A stretch of 64,000 nt of DNA from Nannocystis bainbridge. Its GTDB lineage: Bacteria; Myxococcota_A; Polyangia; Nannocystales; Nannocystaceae. Position 1 is the stretch's first letter, and each line of letters opens with the position of its first letter. The stretch spans positions 2,624,001 to 2,688,000 of the forward strand of contig NZ_JAQNDL010000003.1 in the NCBI RefSeq assembly GCF_028368995.1, written 5' to 3'. The position numbers were made by a program, and so were the translations under genes. This document shows, in pieces, positions 2,282 to 57,021 of the stretch. The notes under the pieces are model-generated. The model had not been told where the DNA came from, ran no database searches, and was given only the letters and a program-made list of their open reading frames with translations.

Positions 2282-4066
2282 TCAGCGCAGCTCGACCGTC
2301 GCCCCGACCGCGTGCAGCAGCTCCTGGTGCGCCATCGCGGCCTCGCGGGCGACCGCCGCCTTGATCAGCGTCGGCGCGGCCTCGACCAGGTCCTTGGCCT
2401 CCTTGAGCCCGAGCCCGGTGATGGCGCGCACCTCCTTGATCACCGAGATCTTGTTCGGCCCGCACACCTGCAGGAACAGGTCGACCTCGGCCGCCACGCC
2501 CCGCTCCGCCTCGCGCAGCTCGACGGCCGCCCCGAGCGCGACGAGCTGCTGCGCCAGCGCGCTCGCCTCGCTGCGCGGCAGCCCCGAGCGCACCACCGCG
2601 CCGGCCGTCTCCGACATGTCCTTGGACTCCTTGAGCCCGAGCCCGGTCACCTCGCGGATCAGCTTGATCACCATGATCTTCTGCGGCCCGCAGTCGTTCA
2701 GCACCACGTCGATCGGCGTCAGGTCGTCGTCCTCGTCCTCGTCCAGCGCCTGGCCGCGGATCTCCACCCGCGCGCCCGCGGCCGTCAGCGCCTCCGCGAG
2801 CCTGCGCGCCTCGTCCCCGCGCAGGCCCTCCTTGATCATGACGTCGGTCGACTCGGACAAGTCCTTGGCGTCCTTGAGCCCGAGCCCCGTAGCCTCGCGG
2901 ATCAGCTTGATCACGCTGATCTTGTTCTCGCCGTGGTGGCGCAAGATCACCCCGAAGCCGCGGCTCGGCTCGGGCAGCGCTGCCGGCGGCGGCGGGGCTG
3001 CGGCACGGAGCTCGACCTGTGCGCCCACGAGCAGCAGCGCCTGCTGGAGCACCCGCGCATCGAACTCGCCCACGCCCTGCTTGATCACCGAGTCGGCGGC
3101 CTCGGACAGGTCCTTGGCGTCCTTGAGCCCGAGCGTGGTGTGGTCGCGGATGACCTTGATGACGTTGATCTTGTTCGGCCCGTGGTGCTGCAGCACCACG
3201 TCGAAGCGCGAGCCCGACGCGAATTGCGGCGTCGCTGTCGGCGCCGCACGTGGCGCCCCGCGGACCGACACCTGCGCGCCCACGGCTGCCAGCGCCCGCT
3301 CGAGCGCCCGCGCCTCCGGCTCGTCCAGGCCTTGTCGGATCACCACGTCGATCGACTCGGACAGATCCTTGGCCTCCTTCAGCCCGAGCCCGGTGGCCTC
3401 GCGGACCAGCTTGACGACATCGATCTTGCGCGTGCCGAAGTGGTGGAGGATCACCGCGAAGCCGTCCGCAGGCGCGCTCGCCGGGGCCGCGCCGCCGGTC
3501 ACCAGGGTCGGCGTTGCGCTGCTGCCCGTCGCGCCCCACGTCACCGCCGCCGACGCTCCGCTTGTCTCGCGCTCCGCCGGCGCGCTGCCGTCGTGCCCGC
3601 GGACCTCGACGATCGCCCCGGCCTCGACCAACTCGTGGCGCAGCGCCTCTGCCTCGTCCTGGGCGAGCCGCCGCTTCAGCAGGCACGGCGCGTCGTCGAC
3701 CAGCTCGACCGCCTCGCGCAGCCCGAGGCCCATCATCATCTTCAGCGCGCGCACGACGTTGATCTTGTTGTCGCCGCGGTCGCGCAGGTACACGTCGAAG
3801 AACGCCGGCGCTGGCGCGGCGCCGTGGGTCCGCAGCTCGACCGTCGCGCCGACGGCCACCAGCTTGACGCGCAGCGCCTCGGCCAGCGCCGGGGCGATCC
3901 GCGTCCGGATCGCGCTCGGGGCCCGGGCCACCAGCTCGGCGGCCGCGGCCGCCTCGAGGCCCGTCATCGCCCGCACCGCCTCGGCCACCGCCGCCGGGTT
4001 CGCCCCGGCTTCGCGCAGGATCACGTCCTGCGGGACAAATTCGCCCGTCTGGCCTCCGCCCGTCAT
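2282..4066 (-). CDS. Protein of seven tandem ribosomal bL12 (L7/L12) C-terminal domains
   Basis: Seven units of about 67 aa matching F-D-V-x-L...K-I-x-V-I-K-x-I-R-x-x-T-G-L-G-L-K-E-A-K-D-L...G-A-x-V-E-L-R. GGAGG RBS precedes ATG 4066. No bL12 N-terminal dimerisation domain. Confidence 0.9.
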   Translation of the reverse strand: MTGGGQTGEFVPQDVILREAGANPAAVAEAVRAMTGLEAAAAAELVARAPSAIRTRIAPALAEALRVKLVAVGATVELRTHGAAPAPAFFDVYLRDRGDNKINVVRALKMMMGLGLREAVELVDDAPCLLKRRLAQDEAEALRHELVEAGAIVEVRGHDGSAPAERETSGASAAVTWGATGSSATPTLVTGGAAPASAPADGFAVILHHFGTRKIDVVKLVREATGLGLKEAKDLSESIDVVIRQGLDEPEARALERALAAVGAQVSVRGAPRAAPTATPQFASGSRFDVVLQHHGPNKINVIKVIRDHTTLGLKDAKDLSEAADSVIKQGVGEFDARVLQQALLLVGAQVELRAAAPPPPAALPEPSRGFGVILRHHGENKISVIKLIREATGLGLKDAKDLSESTDVMIKEGLRGDEARRLAEALTAAGARVEIRGQALDEDEDDDLTPIDVVLNDCGPQKIMVIKLIREVTGLGLKESKDMSETAGAVVRSGLPRSEASALAQQLVALGAAVELREAERGVAAEVDLFLQVCGPNKISVIKEVRAITGLGLKEAKDLVEAAPTLIKAAVAREAAMAHQELLHAVGATVELR

Positions 4067-4296
4067 CGCTCGACCTCCGGGGCCGACGATACCCGAATCA
4101 CCGCGGCACCGTCGCGTCCGCGGACACGGGCGTGTTCGCACCGAGCACCCCGTCGGTGGTCTCGCCCCCCACACCGCGTCCCGGGCGCGATCTCCCGCCA
4201 GCGCCGGGCCGTCCCGCTGCTGCGCTCGCCGGGTCGCTCGAGCAATCCCCCTCGCGCCTCGGCCGACTTCGCCCCGCACCCGGTCGTATCACCTCA

Positions 4297-36203: not shown

Positions 36204-36989
36204 GTGCTGACGATCGCGTCCTGGAACGTCAACGGCCTGCGCGCCCTGGCCCGCAAGCAAGCCCTGTCCCCCTGGCTCGCCAGCGGGCCGACGATCGTCG
36301 GCCTGCAGGAGGTCCGCGCCAGCGCCGACCAGCTCGGCGAGCTGGCCCAGCCCGACGGCTGGCCTTTCGCACATGTCTCTCCAGCCAGGCGCGCGGGCTA
36401 CAGCGGCGTCGCCCTGTTCAGCAAGCTCGCGCCCGACAGCGTCGAGACCGCGCTCGGCCCCAAGTTCGACGTCGAGGGCCGCCTGCAATTGGCGCGCTTC
36501 GGCAAGCTGGTGGTCGCCAACGTGTACTTCCCCAACGGCAACGGCCAGGACCGCAGCAACGACCGCGTGCCGTACAAGCTGTCGTTCTACCGGGCGCTGC
36601 GCAAGCGGCTCGACGCGCTGCGGGCCGAGGGGCTGCGGGTGCTGGTGATGGGCGACTTCAACACGGCCCATCAGGAGATCGATCTGGCCCGCCCGCGCGA
36701 CAATCTGGGCACCAGCGGGTTCCTGCCGGAGGAGCGCGCCGAGCTCGGCCGCTGGCTCAAGCGCGGCTATCACGACACCTTCCGCAAGTTCGAGGCCGGG
36801 CCGGGCCACTATTCGTGGTGGTGTCAGCGCGGCGGCTGCCGCGAGCGCAACGTCGGCTGGCGCATCGACTACGTGCTCGCGTGCGCCGAGGCGCTGCCGT
36901 TCGTCAAAGCGGCGGCGATTCACCCGAGCGTGCTCGGCTCGGATCATTGCCCCGTCAGCGTCACCGTCGATCCCGACATCGTCCGTTGA
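36204..36989 (+). CDS. xth: Exodeoxyribonuclease III (AP endonuclease)
   Basis: SWNVNG, LQE, GYSGVA, YFPNG, GDFN, GWRIDY and GSDHCP motifs. Confidence 0.95.
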   Translation: MLTIASWNVNGLRALARKQALSPWLASGPTIVGLQEVRASADQLGELAQPDGWPFAHVSPARRAGYSGVALFSKLAPDSVETALGPKFDVEGRLQLARFGKLVVANVYFPNGNGQDRSNDRVPYKLSFYRALRKRLDALRAEGLRVLVMGDFNTAHQEIDLARPRDNLGTSGFLPEERAELGRWLKRGYHDTFRKFEAGPGHYSWWCQRGGCRERNVGWRIDYVLACAEALPFVKAAAIHPSVLGSDHCPVSVTVDPDIVR

Positions 36990-37158
36990 CGCGCGACGCT
37001 GGGGGCGCGGGCCCAGCAGCGGCAGCACAGCCTCGCTGTGGACCCGGTGGCGCGCGCGATGGTTTCGCCGCCTGCACGGTCTAGCCTGCCGCTGCGGTGC
37101 CCCGGGCGGCGCCAGAATGCCGCTGACAACCGCGGCGACGCGAAGTATGGTGCCGCCC

Positions 37159-39072
37159 ATGCTTCGTCCACGCGTCGCCGCGTTCCTGGTCCTCCCGTTG
37201 CTCCCCGTGATCGCCTGTCAGGGCGGCGCCGAACAACAACAGCCGGCGGCGCAGAAGGGCAAGCCGGCGCGGGTCGTCGACAGGAAGGGCGACGGCAAGG
37301 CCGAGACCAAGCTCGAGGGCAAGGAGGTCGAGAAGGCCCCGGGCCAGGCCGCCGAGGCCAGGGCGTTCGTCGAGCGCGTCGACGGCGAGCTGCGCGCGCT
37401 CGCGGTCGCCTCGAGCAAGGCCGAGTGGGACAAGAACACCAACATCACCGACGCCACCGAGAAGGCCGCGGCCGACGCCAACGAGAAGTTGATGGAGTTC
37501 ATGGCCAGGACCATCAAGGAAGCCACGACCTTCACCGGCGGCGACATCGACCCCGAGACGGCGCGCAAGCTGCACCTGCTCAAGGTCACCGCCAGCCCGC
37601 CGCCGGCCCCCGGCGACCCCGACAAGCGCAAGCGGCTGGCCGAGCTCGGCGCCAAGATGGAGGGCATCTACGGCAAGGGCAAGGCGTGCGAGGGCGCGAA
37701 GTGCAAGGACCTCGGCGCGCTCGAGGACATCATCGGCACCAGCCGCAAGTACGACGAGCTGCTCAAGGCGTGGACCGGCTGGCACAAGATCGCCGTCGAG
37801 CTGCGGCCGCTGTATCAGGAGTTCGTCGGCCTCGCCAACGAGGGCGCCAAGGAGATCGGCTACAAGGACCTCGGCGAGCTGTGGCGCGCCGGCTACGACA
37901 TGAGCCCGGCCGACTTCGAGCAGGAGACCGAGCGGCTGTGGACGCAGGTCCAGCCGCTCTACGACAAGCTGCACTGCTACGTGCGCGGCAAGCTGGCCGA
38001 CAAGTACGGCAAGGACAAGGTCCCGGCCGAGGGCCTGATCCCGGCGCACCTGCTCGGCAACATGTGGGCGCAGGAGTGGGCCAACATCTATCCGCTGGTC
38101 GAGCCGTTCCCCGGGGCCGCCAGCCTCGACGTCACCGGCGCGCTGAAGAAGGCCAAGTACGACGAGGTCAAGCTGGTCAAGCTCGGCGAGTCGTTCTTCA
38201 CCTCGGTCGGCCTCGACCCGCTGCCGGCGACCTTCTGGGAGCGCTCGATGCTGCAGAAGCCGAAGGACCGCGAGGTCGTGTGCCACGCGAGCGCCTGGGA
38301 CGTCGACTTCAACGACGACCTGCGGATCAAGATGTGCATCAAGATCAACCAGGAGGACCTGGTCACGGTCCACCACGAGCTCGGGCACAACTATTATTAT
38401 CACTACTATTACAAGCTGCCGCTGCTGTTCCAGAACGGCGCCCACGACGGCTTCCACGAGGCGATCGGCGACGCGATCGCGCTGTCGATCACGCCGGCCT
38501 ACCTCAAGCAGATCGGCCTCATCGACGCGGTCCCGGCCGACGACAAGGGCCTCATCAACCTGCAGATGCAGGACGCGCTCGAGAAGATCGCGTTCCTGCC
38601 GTTCGGCAAGCTGATCGATCAATGGCGCTGGGACGTGTTCTCCGGCAAGACCGCGCCGGAGCAGTACAACGAGGCCTGGTGGGCGCTGCGCGCCAAGTAC
38701 CAGGGCATCGCCCCGCCGGAGGGCCGCCCGGACCCCGAGTTCTTCGACGCCGGCGCGAAGTACCACATCCCGGCCAACGTGCCGTACACCCGCTATTTCC
38801 TGGCGCGGATCCTCCAGTTCCAGTTCCACAAGGCGCTGTGCGAGGCCGCCGGTCACACCGGGCCGCTGCACGAGTGCTCGATCTACGGCAAGACCGCCGC
38901 CGGCGACAAGCTCAAGGCGATGCTCGCCCTCGGCTCGTCCAAGCCGTGGCCCGAGGCGATGGCCGCCCTCACTGGCACCAAGCAGATGGACGCCGGGGCG
39001 ATGATCGAGTACTTCGCGCCGCTCGAGAAGTGGCTCGACGAGCAGAATCAGGGCAAGAAGTGCGGCTGGTGA
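37159..39072 (+). CDS. M2-family peptidyl-dipeptidase (ACE-like), lipoprotein
   Basis: PAHLLGNMWAQ, CHASAWD, HHELGH, GFHEAIG and KYHIP motifs; lipobox VIAC. Confidence 0.95.
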   Translation: MLRPRVAAFLVLPLLPVIACQGGAEQQQPAAQKGKPARVVDRKGDGKAETKLEGKEVEKAPGQAAEARAFVERVDGELRALAVASSKAEWDKNTNITDATEKAAADANEKLMEFMARTIKEATTFTGGDIDPETARKLHLLKVTASPPPAPGDPDKRKRLAELGAKMEGIYGKGKACEGAKCKDLGALEDIIGTSRKYDELLKAWTGWHKIAVELRPLYQEFVGLANEGAKEIGYKDLGELWRAGYDMSPADFEQETERLWTQVQPLYDKLHCYVRGKLADKYGKDKVPAEGLIPAHLLGNMWAQEWANIYPLVEPFPGAASLDVTGALKKAKYDEVKLVKLGESFFTSVGLDPLPATFWERSMLQKPKDREVVCHASAWDVDFNDDLRIKMCIKINQEDLVTVHHELGHNYYYHYYYKLPLLFQNGAHDGFHEAIGDAIALSITPAYLKQIGLIDAVPADDKGLINLQMQDALEKIAFLPFGKLIDQWRWDVFSGKTAPEQYNEAWWALRAKYQGIAPPEGRPDPEFFDAGAKYHIPANVPYTRYFLARILQFQFHKALCEAAGHTGPLHECSIYGKTAAGDKLKAMLALGSSKPWPEAMAALTGTKQMDAGAMIEYFAPLEKWLDEQNQGKKCGW

Positions 39073-46918: not shown

Positions 46919-48163
46919 ATGGCGACCGGCCCCGAAATCGCGTCACCGCCCGAAAGTCCGCCGCCGCCGGGCCACTCGCGCGCGCTGGCGACGGTGTGGT
47001 TCACGCTCTTCCTCGACCTGGTGTCGTTCGGGATCGTCATCCCGGTGCTGCCCTTCTACGCCAAGAGCACCGGCGCGTCGGAGGGCCTGATCGCGCTGCT
47101 GGCGACCGCGTACTCGGCGGCGCAGTTCGTGATGTCGCCGGTGCTCGGCCGCCTCAGCGATCGCCACGGCCGACGCCCGGTGATGCTGATCTCGATCGCC
47201 GGCAGCACGATGGCGATGCTGACCCTCGGGTTCGCGCAGGCGCTGTGGATGCTGTTCCTGTCGCGCACGATCAGCGGGGTGTGCAACGCCAACGTGTCGA
47301 CCGCGTACGCCTACGTGGCCGACCGCGTGCCGCCGCACCAGCGCGCCCGCTACATGGGCATGATGGGCACCGCGGTCGGCCTCGGCTTCATCGTCGGGCC
47401 GTCGCTCGGCGGCCTGCTGGCGCGCGCCGACTGGCCGCAGTTCCCGTTCTTCGTCGGCGCGGGGCTCAGCCTGCTCAACTTCTTGATGGCGCTGGTGTGG
47501 CTGCCCGAGAGCCACCGCCAGCGCGCGGCCGCCAGCGCCGGTCCGCCGCCGCCGCGCCCGTCGCTGCTGGCGGTGGCCCGCGATCGCACGTTCTGGCGCA
47601 GCCAGATCGGCGTGATGGTGACGGTCTACTTCGCCTTCTTCTGCGCCTTTGCGGCCATGGAGGCGACCTTCGCCCTGTTCACCGAGGCCTGCTTCGGCTG
47701 GGGCGAGCAGCAGACCGGCCGGTTCTTCGCGTTCGTCGGCACGGTCATCGTCCTGTTCCAGGGCTTCCTGGTCGGCCGCGCGGTGGCCCGCCTCGGCGAG
47801 CGCCGCACGCTGGCCTCCGGCCTGATGATGAGCACCACCGGCTTCGTGCTGCTGTGCATGTCGCCGTCGTGGCTGTTCGTGCTGTTCGGCGGGTTCTTCA
47901 TCGCCGGCGGCAACGGCCTCATCATGCCGAGCATGTCGGCCCTGGTGTCGCGCAACAGCACCAGCGAGAACCAGGGCATCAACGCCGGCTTCACCCAGTC
48001 GGCCGGCGCGCTCGGGCGCATCGCCGGGCCGATGATCGCGGGGGTCCTGTTCGAGGTGGTCGGGCCGCGCGCGCCGATGGGCTCGTCGGCGCTGCTGGTG
48101 GTGCTGGTGTGCGTGATGGTGCTGGCGCGGGTCCACGAGCAGCGCCCCGAGCCCGGGCGCTGA
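46919..48163 (+). CDS. MFS transporter (TetA-like)
   Basis: Motif A GRLSDRHGRRPV, GFIVGPSLGG and 12 TM segments. Confidence 0.92.
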   Translation: MATGPEIASPPESPPPPGHSRALATVWFTLFLDLVSFGIVIPVLPFYAKSTGASEGLIALLATAYSAAQFVMSPVLGRLSDRHGRRPVMLISIAGSTMAMLTLGFAQALWMLFLSRTISGVCNANVSTAYAYVADRVPPHQRARYMGMMGTAVGLGFIVGPSLGGLLARADWPQFPFFVGAGLSLLNFLMALVWLPESHRQRAAASAGPPPPRPSLLAVARDRTFWRSQIGVMVTVYFAFFCAFAAMEATFALFTEACFGWGEQQTGRFFAFVGTVIVLFQGFLVGRAVARLGERRTLASGLMMSTTGFVLLCMSPSWLFVLFGGFFIAGGNGLIMPSMSALVSRNSTSENQGINAGFTQSAGALGRIAGPMIAGVLFEVVGPRAPMGSSALLVVLVCVMVLARVHEQRPEPGR

Positions 48164-48167
48164 GGTC

Positions 48168-48860
48168 CTAGCGATCGCGCTGCAGCCGGCCGTCCTCGCC
48201 CCAGCTCGAGGTGCGATAGGCGACGAGGCCGCTGCCGGGATGGTGCCGGTCGGGGTGAATGGTGCGCACGTGGACGTGCTGCGACGGACCCCAGCCGAAC
48301 CCGAGCGAGAGCCGGCCGATCGTCAGCGCCTCGGTGGTCGCGCCGAGCAGCCGCAGCTTCGCGTCGTCGCGGCTGACGCCGGCGAAGTAGCCCTCCTGCG
48401 CCTGCAAGACGGTGTGCACGAGGTGGGCCGGCGCGTCGCCGCGCGCACGGGCCCGCGACCACACGAGCGCCGCGAGCTCGTCGAGCCGGTCGTAGCGGAC
48501 CACCACGAACGAGGCGACGCGACAGACGAAGGTGTCGTCGCCGGCGAACACCACCTCGGCCTCGACCTCGACGGGCACGCGCACGCCGTCGGGGCCCTCG
48601 ACGAACAGGTCGCCGCGCGTCGACTCGAGCCGCAGCTCGGCGCCGGCCGAGAAGTCGGTCGGGCCGACCGGGGTGACGATCGTCGGCCAGTCGCGCAGAT
48701 CCGCCCCCCAGCGGTCGAGGTGATGGTGCGCGACGAAGCGCTCGTGATCGAAGCTGCCGACGTCGCCGAGCCGCAGCTCGCCGGAGAACGGCGGCCACGC
48801 CCCGAAGCCCAGCTCCATGACGCGGCTCGTGTGACGATTCCAGGCGCTGGACAGACTCAT
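48168..48860 (-). CDS. Hypothetical beta-rich protein, candidate gasdermin-like pore former
   Basis: GAGGG RBS; G..WPP....LGDVG, alternating beta strands, LVHTVLQAQ and C-terminal LVAYR. The CDS is well supported; the fold is inferred. Confidence 0.6.
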   Translation of the reverse strand: MSLSSAWNRHTSRVMELGFGAWPPFSGELRLGDVGSFDHERFVAHHHLDRWGADLRDWPTIVTPVGPTDFSAGAELRLESTRGDLFVEGPDGVRVPVEVEAEVVFAGDDTFVCRVASFVVVRYDRLDELAALVWSRARARGDAPAHLVHTVLQAQEGYFAGVSRDDAKLRLLGATTEALTIGRLSLGFGWGPSQHVHVRTIHPDRHHPGSGLVAYRTSSWGEDGRLQRDR

Positions 48861-48946: not shown

Positions 48947-49789
48947 ATGACCCAAATCGACGAGATCACGGCACGCGCCGCCGCCGCCGTGGCCACCGCG
49001 GACGCGCTCCTGATCTGCGCAGGCGCCGGCATGGGCGTCGATTCCGGGTTGCCCGACTTTCGCGGGCCCGAGGGCTTCTGGCGCGCGTATCCGGCGGCCC
49101 GCGAGCTCGGGCTCCAGTTCCACGACCTCGCCGACCCGCGGTGGTTCACCCGCGATCCGGCCCTCGCCTGGGGCTTCTACGGCCACCGCCTGAACCTGTA
49201 TCGCGCGACAGCGCCGCACGCCGGCTTCGCGCTGCTCCGGCGCTGGGCCGCGCGCACGCCCGCGGGGGCGTTCGTCTACACGTCGAACGTGGACGGGCAG
49301 TTCCAGCGCGCGGGCTTCTCCGAGGCGCAGGTCGAAGAGTGCCACGGATCGATCTTGCACCTGCAATGTCTGCAGGGCTGCGACCTGCCGCCCTGGCCCG
49401 TCCCGCAGGCGGCCGTGTCGGTCGATGTCGCGACGCTGCGCGCCGCCCCTCCGTTCTTCACGTGCCCGCGCTGCGCCGGGCTGGCCCGCCCCAACATCAT
49501 GATGTTCAGCGATTTCGCGTGGGACTCGACCCGCGCGAACGAGCAGCGCGAACGCTCGCGCGCGTGGCTGCAGGCGCAGGAGCAGGCGGGCGCGCGCGTG
49601 GCGGTGATCTGCCTCGGCTCGGGCACCGCGATCCAGACGGTGCGCCTGACGGCCGAACGCGCGGCCCGTCGCCCCGGCAATACGCTGATCCGCATCAACC
49701 CCCGCGACCCATGGGTGCCGAGCGGCCAGCTCTCGCTGGCCACGGGGGCGCTCGCAGGCCTGACGGCGATCGACGCAGCGCTGGGCTGA
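48947..49789 (+). CDS. Sirtuin (Sir2) NAD-dependent deacylase
   Basis: GAGMGVDSGLPDFRG, SNVDG, ECHGS, Zn-binding cysteines, RPNI and RINP. Confidence 0.92.
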   Translation: MTQIDEITARAAAAVATADALLICAGAGMGVDSGLPDFRGPEGFWRAYPAARELGLQFHDLADPRWFTRDPALAWGFYGHRLNLYRATAPHAGFALLRRWAARTPAGAFVYTSNVDGQFQRAGFSEAQVEECHGSILHLQCLQGCDLPPWPVPQAAVSVDVATLRAAPPFFTCPRCAGLARPNIMMFSDFAWDSTRANEQRERSRAWLQAQEQAGARVAVICLGSGTAIQTVRLTAERAARRPGNTLIRINPRDPWVPSGQLSLATGALAGLTAIDAALG

Positions 49790-51165: not shown

Positions 51166-51500
51166 GCCACTACAGTATTTCATCAAAATGGAATTTTCAA
51201 GTTGCTGAACGTCCCGGGCGGCTCCGGGCGAGGCCGCCGCCCGGCGGCGCCTGCGGCTCCAGAGGCTCCAGAGGGCCGAGAACCGGGCGTTGCACAAAAG
51301 ATAAGCGGGCTGAGCCGGCTCCATGGCACGAGAGGAATTTCCGCTATTCTGAAGAACGTGCGATCCCCCGCCCCGCCGCCATGCTGACCCTGCTCCTCGT
51401 AAGCCTCTGGCGCGCCCACTGCCGCCGTCGCCGCGCGGCCGCCGCAGGGGCCGCTTGAGCGCTTTGCGCGAGGCCGCGCGGGGTCTAGGGCGCGAGGGCT

Positions 51501-54278
<2,778 letters not shown>

Positions 54279-54294
54279 CAGCTACCTCGAAGAA

Positions 54295-57021
<2,727 letters not shown>

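Follow-up and report, generated by a model that had tools for sequence, protein, structure and literature searches.

The gene at positions 48168..48860 (minus strand) of a 64,000-nucleotide stretch of Nannocystis bainbridge DNA (contig NZ_JAQNDL010000003.1; this whole stretch is the window) encodes P0002, a 230-amino-acid (aa) protein that is probably a true, divergent gasdermin homolog, as judged from profile, language-model, and genomic context evidence. In the overall best explanation, which we hold with about as much belief as doubt, P0002 belongs to a tail-less branch of the bacterial gasdermins (bGSDMs) and would be a pore former under cleavage-independent control. In characterized bGSDM systems, a short tail locks the pore former until a protease cuts it off. 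A clade with neither tail, lipid anchor, nor protease asks what silences and releases a bare gasdermin pore domain, and it makes protease-free control of a bGSDM a directly testable question.

The gasdermin-like identity, proposed in an earlier note on this DNA, gained sequence-level support from searches of the PDB, from neighbors in Atlas, and from relatives that are encoded beside a putative protease. Sequence searches were run against 177,635 distinct PDB sequences (E ≤ 10); the two widest profiles were A7, containing 39 superfamily sequences, and A5, containing 37. A7 gave three matches only, all of them bGSDMs. The best match, 7n50_A (E = 1.7e-4, 24.5 bits), paired profile positions 22 to 187 with chain residues 25 to 199 (166 positions), and the other two, 8sl0_A (E = 0.088) and 7n51_A (E = 0.096), both paired positions 137 to 213 with chain residues 151 to 223; A5 matched 8sl0 and 7n51 only, with E values of 0.13 and 0.15. 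The A7 alignments are collinear: the WPP...GD block of the superfamily pairs with PPRD-NIAPGD (chain residues 25 to 34 of 7n50), the central strand is aligned by profile position to NFFVVTKVWRA of 7n50 and RLYVITQVIK of 7n51/8sl0, and the final strand pairs with LVFGFKCFEI. The chain numbering of 7n50 (Bradyrhizobium) fits R27 and N29, and that of 7n51 (Vitiosangium) fits L211 and F213, residues that are named in the respective papers. In the Atlas language-model features, the top scores of P0002 were 0.96 to 0.97, and 12 of its 30 neighbors were in clusters with PF26164 (Bact_GSDM), which is carried by 11 to 12% of the members of these clusters. P0020, a paralog from the same genome, had 16 of 30 in Bact_GSDM clusters (12 to 33% of members), together with a pejvakin cluster (PJVK, PF04598) at 0.87. 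According to the tool's own text, a score of at least 0.95 is reached by about 1 in 100 shuffled proteins.

All six sequence elements listed in the earlier note were found in the P0002 translation, in the same order, and the gene is conserved in six genomes. The gene and these elements are as follows.

48168..48860, minus strand: gene of the gasdermin-like protein P0002, stop codon included, 230 aa (open reading frame [ORF] and translation, orthologs, and the ratio of nonsynonymous to synonymous substitution rates [dN/dS])
P0002 residues 18-35: GFGAWPP-x5-RLGDVG
P0002 residues 74-105: ELRLES...VEVEAEVVF
P0002 residues 108-128: DTFVCRV...RYDRLDEL
P0002 residues 146-155: HLVHTVLQAQ
P0002 residues 167-189: KLRLLG...RLSLGFGW
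P0002 residues 209-216: GSGLVAYR, with 14 residues after it

An alternative longer ORF reaches 48944, but all six Nannocystis loci whose upstream regions were compared keep GAGGGA as a ribosome site together with the ATG at 48860, and the distant relatives described below start at the position equivalent to the P0002 start. Orthologs in Nannocystis species share 79 to 87% identity with P0002. The six orthologs are intact, each exactly 690 nucleotides (nt) long, and dN/dS among them is 0.31 to 0.76 (15 pairs). The G+C content at third codon positions (GC3) of the gene is 0.88, in a window of about 72% G+C. The P0002 gene is more than a chance ORF. The protein has no signal peptide-like N terminus and no further domain beyond the gasdermin-like one.

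Residue-level comparison within the superfamily divides P0002 into the following parts, all encoded on the minus strand.

48810..48860: residues 1-17, basic N-terminal segment with the invariant W7, at the site of the palmitoylated Cys in characterized bGSDMs
48756..48797: residues 22-35, WPPF-x5-(R)LGDVG, the block with the highest conservation in the superfamily
48546..48647: residues 72-105, candidate membrane hairpin 1, two alternating polar/apolar strands around a loop
48384..48425: residues 146-159, central strand HLVHTVLQAQEGYF, with V148, Y158, and F159 invariant in the clade
48258..48365: residues 166-201, candidate membrane hairpin 2 (KLRLL..., RLSLGFGW, HVHVRTIH), its alternation read from the sequence
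48171..48233: residues 210-230, final strand GLVAYR followed by a conserved end of 14 residues; the C-terminal inhibitory peptide of bGSDMs has no counterpart here

Every one of the 13 proteins in the 230-aa clade has W7, and the N-terminal segment that contains it may play the role of a helix ("thumb"). Across the superfamily, W22 is conserved in 53, G32 in 54, and D33 in 50 of 54 sequences. The beta-amphipathic windows of P0002 are located at residues 72 to 77 and 96 to 102; they make up a fraction of 0.072, compared with 0.017 ± 0.017 in shuffled sequences (7 of 500 shuffles reach 0.072), and residues 72 to 105 could thus serve as a membrane hairpin. The second candidate hairpin is less well supported than the first, as only one window there was above the quantitative amphipathicity threshold. 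W220 and G224 likewise do not vary among the 13 proteins of this 230-aa clade, and the 14-residue end is therefore no disordered leftover.

The earlier note had described P0002 as devoid of an inhibitory tail, an N-terminal Cys, and an adjacent protease, and all three absences were borne out; the end segment in place of the tail is nonetheless conserved. The A7 alignment maps G211 to D223 of P0002 on L211 to K223 of the Vitiosangium bGSDM, a 266-residue protein whose toxic activated form comprises residues 1 to 237 and whose inhibitory C-terminal part has 29 residues, as given in PMC10153256. Because P0002 ends at residue 230, seven residues before the Vitiosangium cut at 237, the target clade has no equivalent of the inhibitory peptide; by length and register, P0002 corresponds to an already-trimmed gasdermin. 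The earliest Cys of P0002 is C113, so that none is N terminal; C113 is kept only in Nannocystis and one distant member, and no Cys is conserved clade-wide. Characterized bGSDMs carry a palmitoylated Cys3/4, which is required for the toxicity of the Runella and Vitiosangium proteins (PMC10153256 among the sources); a Gillisia bGSDM has no N-terminal Cys, and the feature is therefore not universal. No peptidase domain was found within 9 kb of the P0002 gene, and the window as a whole yielded no caspase-like, CHAT, or trypsin-like protease; the nearest peptidase domains are listed here.

36649-39069: Peptidase_M2, 9 kb from the P0002 gene
62286-63998: Peptidase_S8 subtilase, 13 kb from the P0002 gene

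Since this anatomy includes neither a C-terminal inhibitory peptide nor a neighboring protease that could remove it, control of P0002 would not be exerted in that way.

When searched alone, P0002 had no match in local Pfam, PADLOC, NCBIfam, or the PDB sequences; the local Pfam copy does not include PF26164 (Bact_GSDM), and for this reason the Pfam blank does not exclude a gasdermin. When 1.84 billion representatives were scanned exhaustively with HMMER, only seven proteins reached E ≤ 0.001: the genus representative, five proteins of 229 to 287 aa at 24 to 26% identity, and P0010 (1,256 aa, 11 short stretches), a repetitive, compositional match that was excluded from every alignment. A sixth distant relative was obtained by word-indexed search. 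The distant relatives, of about 230 aa and 21 to 26% identity, are all found on metagenome contigs of 1.3 to 3.3 kb; scans of genome and metagenome contigs with single proteins gave no further locus for them, and a search of genomes gave one genomic member of this group, at L042. In addition, a weaker-matching paralog is present in each of the six Nannocystis genomes having the ortholog, which in the genome of the window is P0020 (263 aa, with an acidic tail). In hhalign comparisons, the target subfamily matched the long-tailed family to which P0020 belongs over target residues 4 to 197 (99.4%, E = 3.7e-21) and a 223-aa family over residues 4 to 218 (98.0%, E = 2.1e-13).

Members of the superfamily occur in 22 of 301 genomes sampled from the class and, within the family Nannocystaceae, in 16 of 46, a sizeable group of apparent gasdermin relatives that the annotation models used had missed; beyond the class, no more than four further genomes among those sampled from the phylum gave strong matches. 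By these searches, the superfamily is an unannotated one that is centered on Nannocystaceae. Phylum-wide genome searches with A5 and A9 gave no canonical bGSDM genes, only superfamily members and weak matches, and the latter were inspected and judged to be noise (A9 leaves out L051, which has a frame-shifted-looking tail, the fused form L061, and L059 and L060, which are duplicates of L011 and L012). In the maximum-likelihood tree, whose midpoint root serves drawing purposes only, 18 short-tailed rows split off from the other 21 with a branch support of 98/98, and the short tail is therefore a clade character. The final strand is followed by 14 to 17 residues in the target clade, 17 in the 223-aa clade, 7 in the outlier L018, and 39 to 58 acidic-tail residues in the long-tailed clade; 38 of the 39 superfamily members, P0020 included, have no Cys within the first 12 residues. 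The fused form (L061 6029-7777, plus strand) is a 576-aa protein whose gasdermin-like domain continues into a long extension, with a hydrophobic, transmembrane-looking segment at its end.

In the neighborhoods of the homologs, which the earlier note had named as a check, a putative His-Cys protease adjoins four long-tailed relatives, and no Sir2 gene accompanies the distant clade member at L042. The loci concerned are as follows.

L048 7428-9770, minus strand: 612-781-aa-type neighbor of a long-tailed gene
L049 4106-5941, minus strand: neighbor of the same type
L055 7046-9073, minus strand: neighbor of the same type
L056 7172-9034, plus strand: neighbor of the same type
Contig C3 889811-890599: P0020, the long-tailed paralog of the same genome
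Contig C3 889811-891698 (locus L013 7809-9699), minus strand: P0020 together with a 359-aa ORF

The four long-tailed members (L048, L049, L055, and L056) come from two genera; two of their 612-to-781-aa neighbors are on the same strand as the long-tailed gene, and two are divergent. These neighbors share the motif SHG...FACYG[GA]GTP, which we take to be a His-Cys dyad of the clan-CD-like type; Peptidase_C25 scores 13.8 to 18.8 bits against them, below its cut-off of 23, and Peptidase_C14 gave no match. Genome G556 has many copies of the family, and no homolog was found in the genome of the window at E ≤ 1e-4. The 612-to-781-aa proteins are putative activating proteases of the long-tailed clade. 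At L026, 850 bp separate another long-tailed relative from the downstream gene of a 993-aa NACHT and FGE-sulfatase protein, and the stretch continues with an HTH protein, a reverse transcriptase (PADLOC RT/DRT match), and a second FGE-sulfatase protein; L026 8915-18999 looks like a defense island. The member at L042 (101-2969, minus strand) is in an apparent operon with a 334-aa ORF and a DUF4419 protein (E = 6.2e-74). A CN_hydrolase identity of the 334-aa ORF was rejected, as no PF00795 match was present there. Neither the 334-aa ORF nor the DUF4419 protein has a homolog in the genome of the window, and hence no conserved partner emerges. P0020 itself is directly downstream of the 359-aa ORF, a pair kept in all four subclade loci; this ORF had no match in Pfam, PADLOC, NCBIfam, or the PDB, and its GDMHSSN...IDFD pattern, read by eye, may resemble that of kinase-like folds.

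The P0002 gene is convergent with a transporter gene and divergent from a sirtuin gene, the latter arrangement as stated in the earlier note.

46919-48163: MFS efflux-type transporter, convergent with the P0002 gene
48861..48946, no strand: divergent intergenic region between the P0002 and Sir2 genes, with the conserved GAGGGA and AT-richer conserved blocks
48947-49789, plus strand: Sir2-family gene, divergent from the P0002 gene across an 86-bp gap
51501-57021, minus strand: two tandem paralogous Ser/Thr kinase-TPR proteins of 925 and 908 aa, about 3 kb and about 5 kb away

No sigma-70-like or terminator-like site was found in the intergenic region, and the sole match of an Rfam scan was noise. 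Besides the two kinase-TPR proteins, the further neighbors include a family-4-like uracil-DNA glycosylase, DUF2325, a 5'-3' exonuclease, an AAA ATPase, DUF4442, DUF7793, and a cytochrome-c-like protein. The nine genes that run from the cytochrome-like protein to the glycosylase form a block that is syntenic in all three other Nannocystis loci compared. No PADLOC model matched the immediate neighbors from DUF7793 through DUF2325; both kinase-TPR proteins match kinase-type PADLOC models strongly (C3a189, PD-T4-6, and mad6), which does not imply a defense role because such kinases are abundant in myxobacteria. No match to the P0002 gene was found on phages or plasmids (tblastn) or on viral contigs, and the window contains no tRNA and no flanking repeats except GC-rich chance matches. 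The P0002 locus does not look like a defense island, and its stable place in the chromosome, together with the lack of matches on mobile elements, speaks against a shuffled defense gene of the typical kind. The stable context leaves room for a lineage-specific role, for which developmental lysis in a fruiting myxobacterium is a speculation.

We infer the fold, membrane binding, pore formation, cleavage-free activation, and biological role of P0002 from its sequence. In the explanation that we favor, P0002 would be a cytoplasmic 230-aa protein of a divergent bGSDM branch that keeps the whole pore-forming domain. The soluble form would be closed by its own packing, with the invariant W7 and W220 as candidates to stand in for the palmitoyl group and the latch residue, and low expression or an unlinked factor may add to its silence. 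Upon a signal, the basic N-terminal segment would bind the inner membrane, the two amphipathic stretches would refold into beta-hairpins, and the protomers would assemble into a pore, by which the producing cell would be killed or lysed. Control may come from W7/W220 self-packing, tight expression from the divergent intergenic region, an unlinked protease or partner, or the long-tailed paralog. A more specific version is doubtful, namely, that P0002 is the first bGSDM to work without proteolytic loss of an inhibitory peptide, as a chromosomal, genus-conserved, "pre-trimmed" pore former of a multicellular, fruiting myxobacterium, in which W7 and W220 would take over from palmitoyl group and latch. 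Its trigger would be a cellular signal, with a possible role in developmental autolysis or in kin or phage conflict, and it would not act as part of a mobile defense island. If this is true, the short- and long-tailed clades of the superfamily would mark a change, inside one bacterial family, between control by a protease and control without one. The sister clade, with its long acidic tails and, for some members, adjacent putative His-Cys proteases, provides a natural comparison within one organism family.

Compared with the bGSDMs of Bradyrhizobium (7N50) and Vitiosangium (7N51; pore, 8SL0; Johnson et al.), P0002 has a similar size, the collinear PP...GD block, central [YF]VV-type strand, and final strand, and similarity at the level of the superfamily profile; a putative cysteine protease adjoins some of its long-tailed relatives, though not P0002. 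It differs from them in having no C-terminal inhibitory peptide, N-terminal palmitoyl-Cys, adjacent protease, or defense-island context and in being too divergent to be detected from a single sequence. The P0020 family is homologous to P0002 over residues 4 to 197 and has a likewise Cys-less N terminus; unlike P0002, it has an acidic tail of 39 to 58 residues, and in Nannocystis it is preceded by the conserved 359-aa ORF. If P0002 is a gasdermin homolog, it would also resemble fungal RCD-1 and Trichoplax TrichoGSDM, which PMC11760362 and PMC13475620 describe as pore domains with cleavage-independent activation, no inhibitory domain, and no dedicated protease. Both are eukaryotic, however; RCD-1 requires two allelic partners, and TrichoGSDM is held by a disulfide-linked dimer, whereas the P0002 clade has no conserved Cys. 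The pyroptolysins (10.64898/2026.10.05.756811) are, in the portion of the source available, bacterial gasdermin-fold proteins encoded mostly by solitary genes, and in that portion these larger toxins are the only solitary bacterial gasdermin-fold proteins described so far; they have 325 to 400 aa, a C-terminal CDC-like Ig domain, and sterol-membrane targets, whereas P0002 has 230 aa and no extra domain. Cleavage-independent activation has so far been reported for animal and fungal gasdermins, as far as the available parts of PMC13475620, PMC11760362, and 10.64898/2026.10.05.756811 extend. In full-text searches of the literature, we found no paper that joins Nannocystis and gasdermin, no mention of gasdermin among the myxobacterial papers listed, and, among the papers listed on bGSDMs, none on a tail-less, protease-less one, although the supplementary tables of 50 bGSDMs might include related cases.

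Several observations weigh against a tail-less gasdermin pore former. Gasdermins were found in only two of the eight PDB sequence searches, both with the widest profiles: P0002 alone gave no match; profile A1 of the target subfamily matched only designed TIM barrels (E values, 0.22 to 0.28); the subfamily profile A8 gave no match (A1 and A8 differ by two bridging sequences); and no gasdermin was found with the long-tailed set A4, the 223-aa set A6, or the single proteins P0016 and L018. The gasdermin link is thus transitive, because it is made by combined profiles only, which are joined to the target through hhalign. PADLOC gave no family at E ≤ 10 for P0002, the six distant relatives, or the paralog (no family named "bGSDM" was found in PADLOC), Pfam Gasdermin (PF04598) matched none of the 39 members at E ≤ 10, no NCBIfam or local Pfam model (PF26164 not included) matched, and in the Atlas clusters, the Bact_GSDM share is only 11 to 33% of the members. 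The protease-like neighbors of the relatives do not reach the curated cut-off, and no homolog of theirs was found in this genome. As the Cys is needed for the toxicity of the Runella and Vitiosangium proteins, the Cys-less P0002 may form pores poorly, and the second candidate hairpin has just its single window above the threshold. In addition, a gasdermin without an inhibitory peptide is expected to be toxic, yet the gene is in stable synteny of a housekeeping type, with no visible regulator or immunity gene.

We regard as rather unlikely an explanation in which P0002 has a gasdermin fold without forming lytic pores and serves, as a lineage-specific core gene, a non-lethal purpose such as membrane remodeling or a regulated small channel. 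The absence of inhibitory peptide, palmitoyl-Cys, protease, and defense-island context would agree with this, as would the synteny in three of three other Nannocystis loci, the absence from phages, plasmids, and viral contigs, and the moderate purifying selection. However, the amphipathic strand pattern and the basic N terminus persist across 21 to 26% identity, and a dN/dS of 0.3 to 0.5 is high for a housekeeping protein.

It is unlikely that P0002 is a gasdermin homolog that is still activated by proteolysis, in which case a protease encoded at a distance would cut in or before the 14-residue end and free the W220 latch. The invariance of W220 and G224 (13 of 13) is what a functional end segment would show, and bGSDM inhibitory peptides are reported to have 17 to 67 residues in PMC13475620 and thus can be as short as 17. 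Candidate proteases exist as well, with four Peptidase_C14 and six CHAT matches genome-wide and the putative His-Cys proteases beside long-tailed relatives; however, the nearest C14/CHAT match is about 271 kb from the P0002 gene, the protease-like family of the relatives has no homolog here at the threshold given above, and in the profile mapping, P0002 ends seven residues short of the Vitiosangium cut site.

We think it quite unlikely that P0002 is no gasdermin relative at all but a member of an unrelated beta-rich family, with profile and language-model signals arising by chance or from composition. The two successful searches out of eight, with a best E value of 1.7e-4, fit such a reading, as does the public name "Biogenesis AIM24" that one source gives to P0021, the Nannocystis punicea paralog. 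None of the 39 members matches Pfam AIM24 at E ≤ 10, however, and this label therefore looks wrong. Moreover, the two widest profiles match gasdermins only, in collinear alignments that take in the PP...GD block and both the central and the final strand, the chain numbering fits the residues named in the 7n50 and 7n51 papers, and Atlas scores such as those of P0002 would be expected for few shuffled proteins.

The suggestion of the earlier note that the sirtuin controls P0002 by removing acyl groups did not hold up and is very improbable: the divergent pair and its 86-bp gap are kept in Nannocystis, but the whole nine-gene block is syntenic within the genus, so that the adjacency carries no specific signal, no Sir2 gene lies beside the L042 member or other relatives, the Sir2 protein scores best against CobB-type NAD-dependent deacylase models, without reaching their cut-offs, matches no PADLOC model, and is thus more like CobB deacylases than like the SIR2 proteins of defense systems, and P0002 does not have the Cys that is acylated in bGSDMs.

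A 2,701-nt soil contig covers 47901-49601 of the window with 225 differences and includes the end of the MFS gene, the P0002 gene, and most of the Sir2 gene, which indicates that a related organism with the same gene order is present in soil. The soil run (X2), like a second one compared with the window, is labeled metatranscriptomic but is probably DNA, and the contig is uninformative on expression. Within the kinase pair, the 3' end of the first gene contains two direct copies of a 66-nt unit (51500-51636; 88% alike, 71 nt apart). At the other end of the window, a 668-aa ORF (2285-4288, minus strand) comprises seven tandem ribosomal protein L7/L12 C-terminal domains (Pfam E = 5.7e-138, seven stretches), an odd architecture for that domain.

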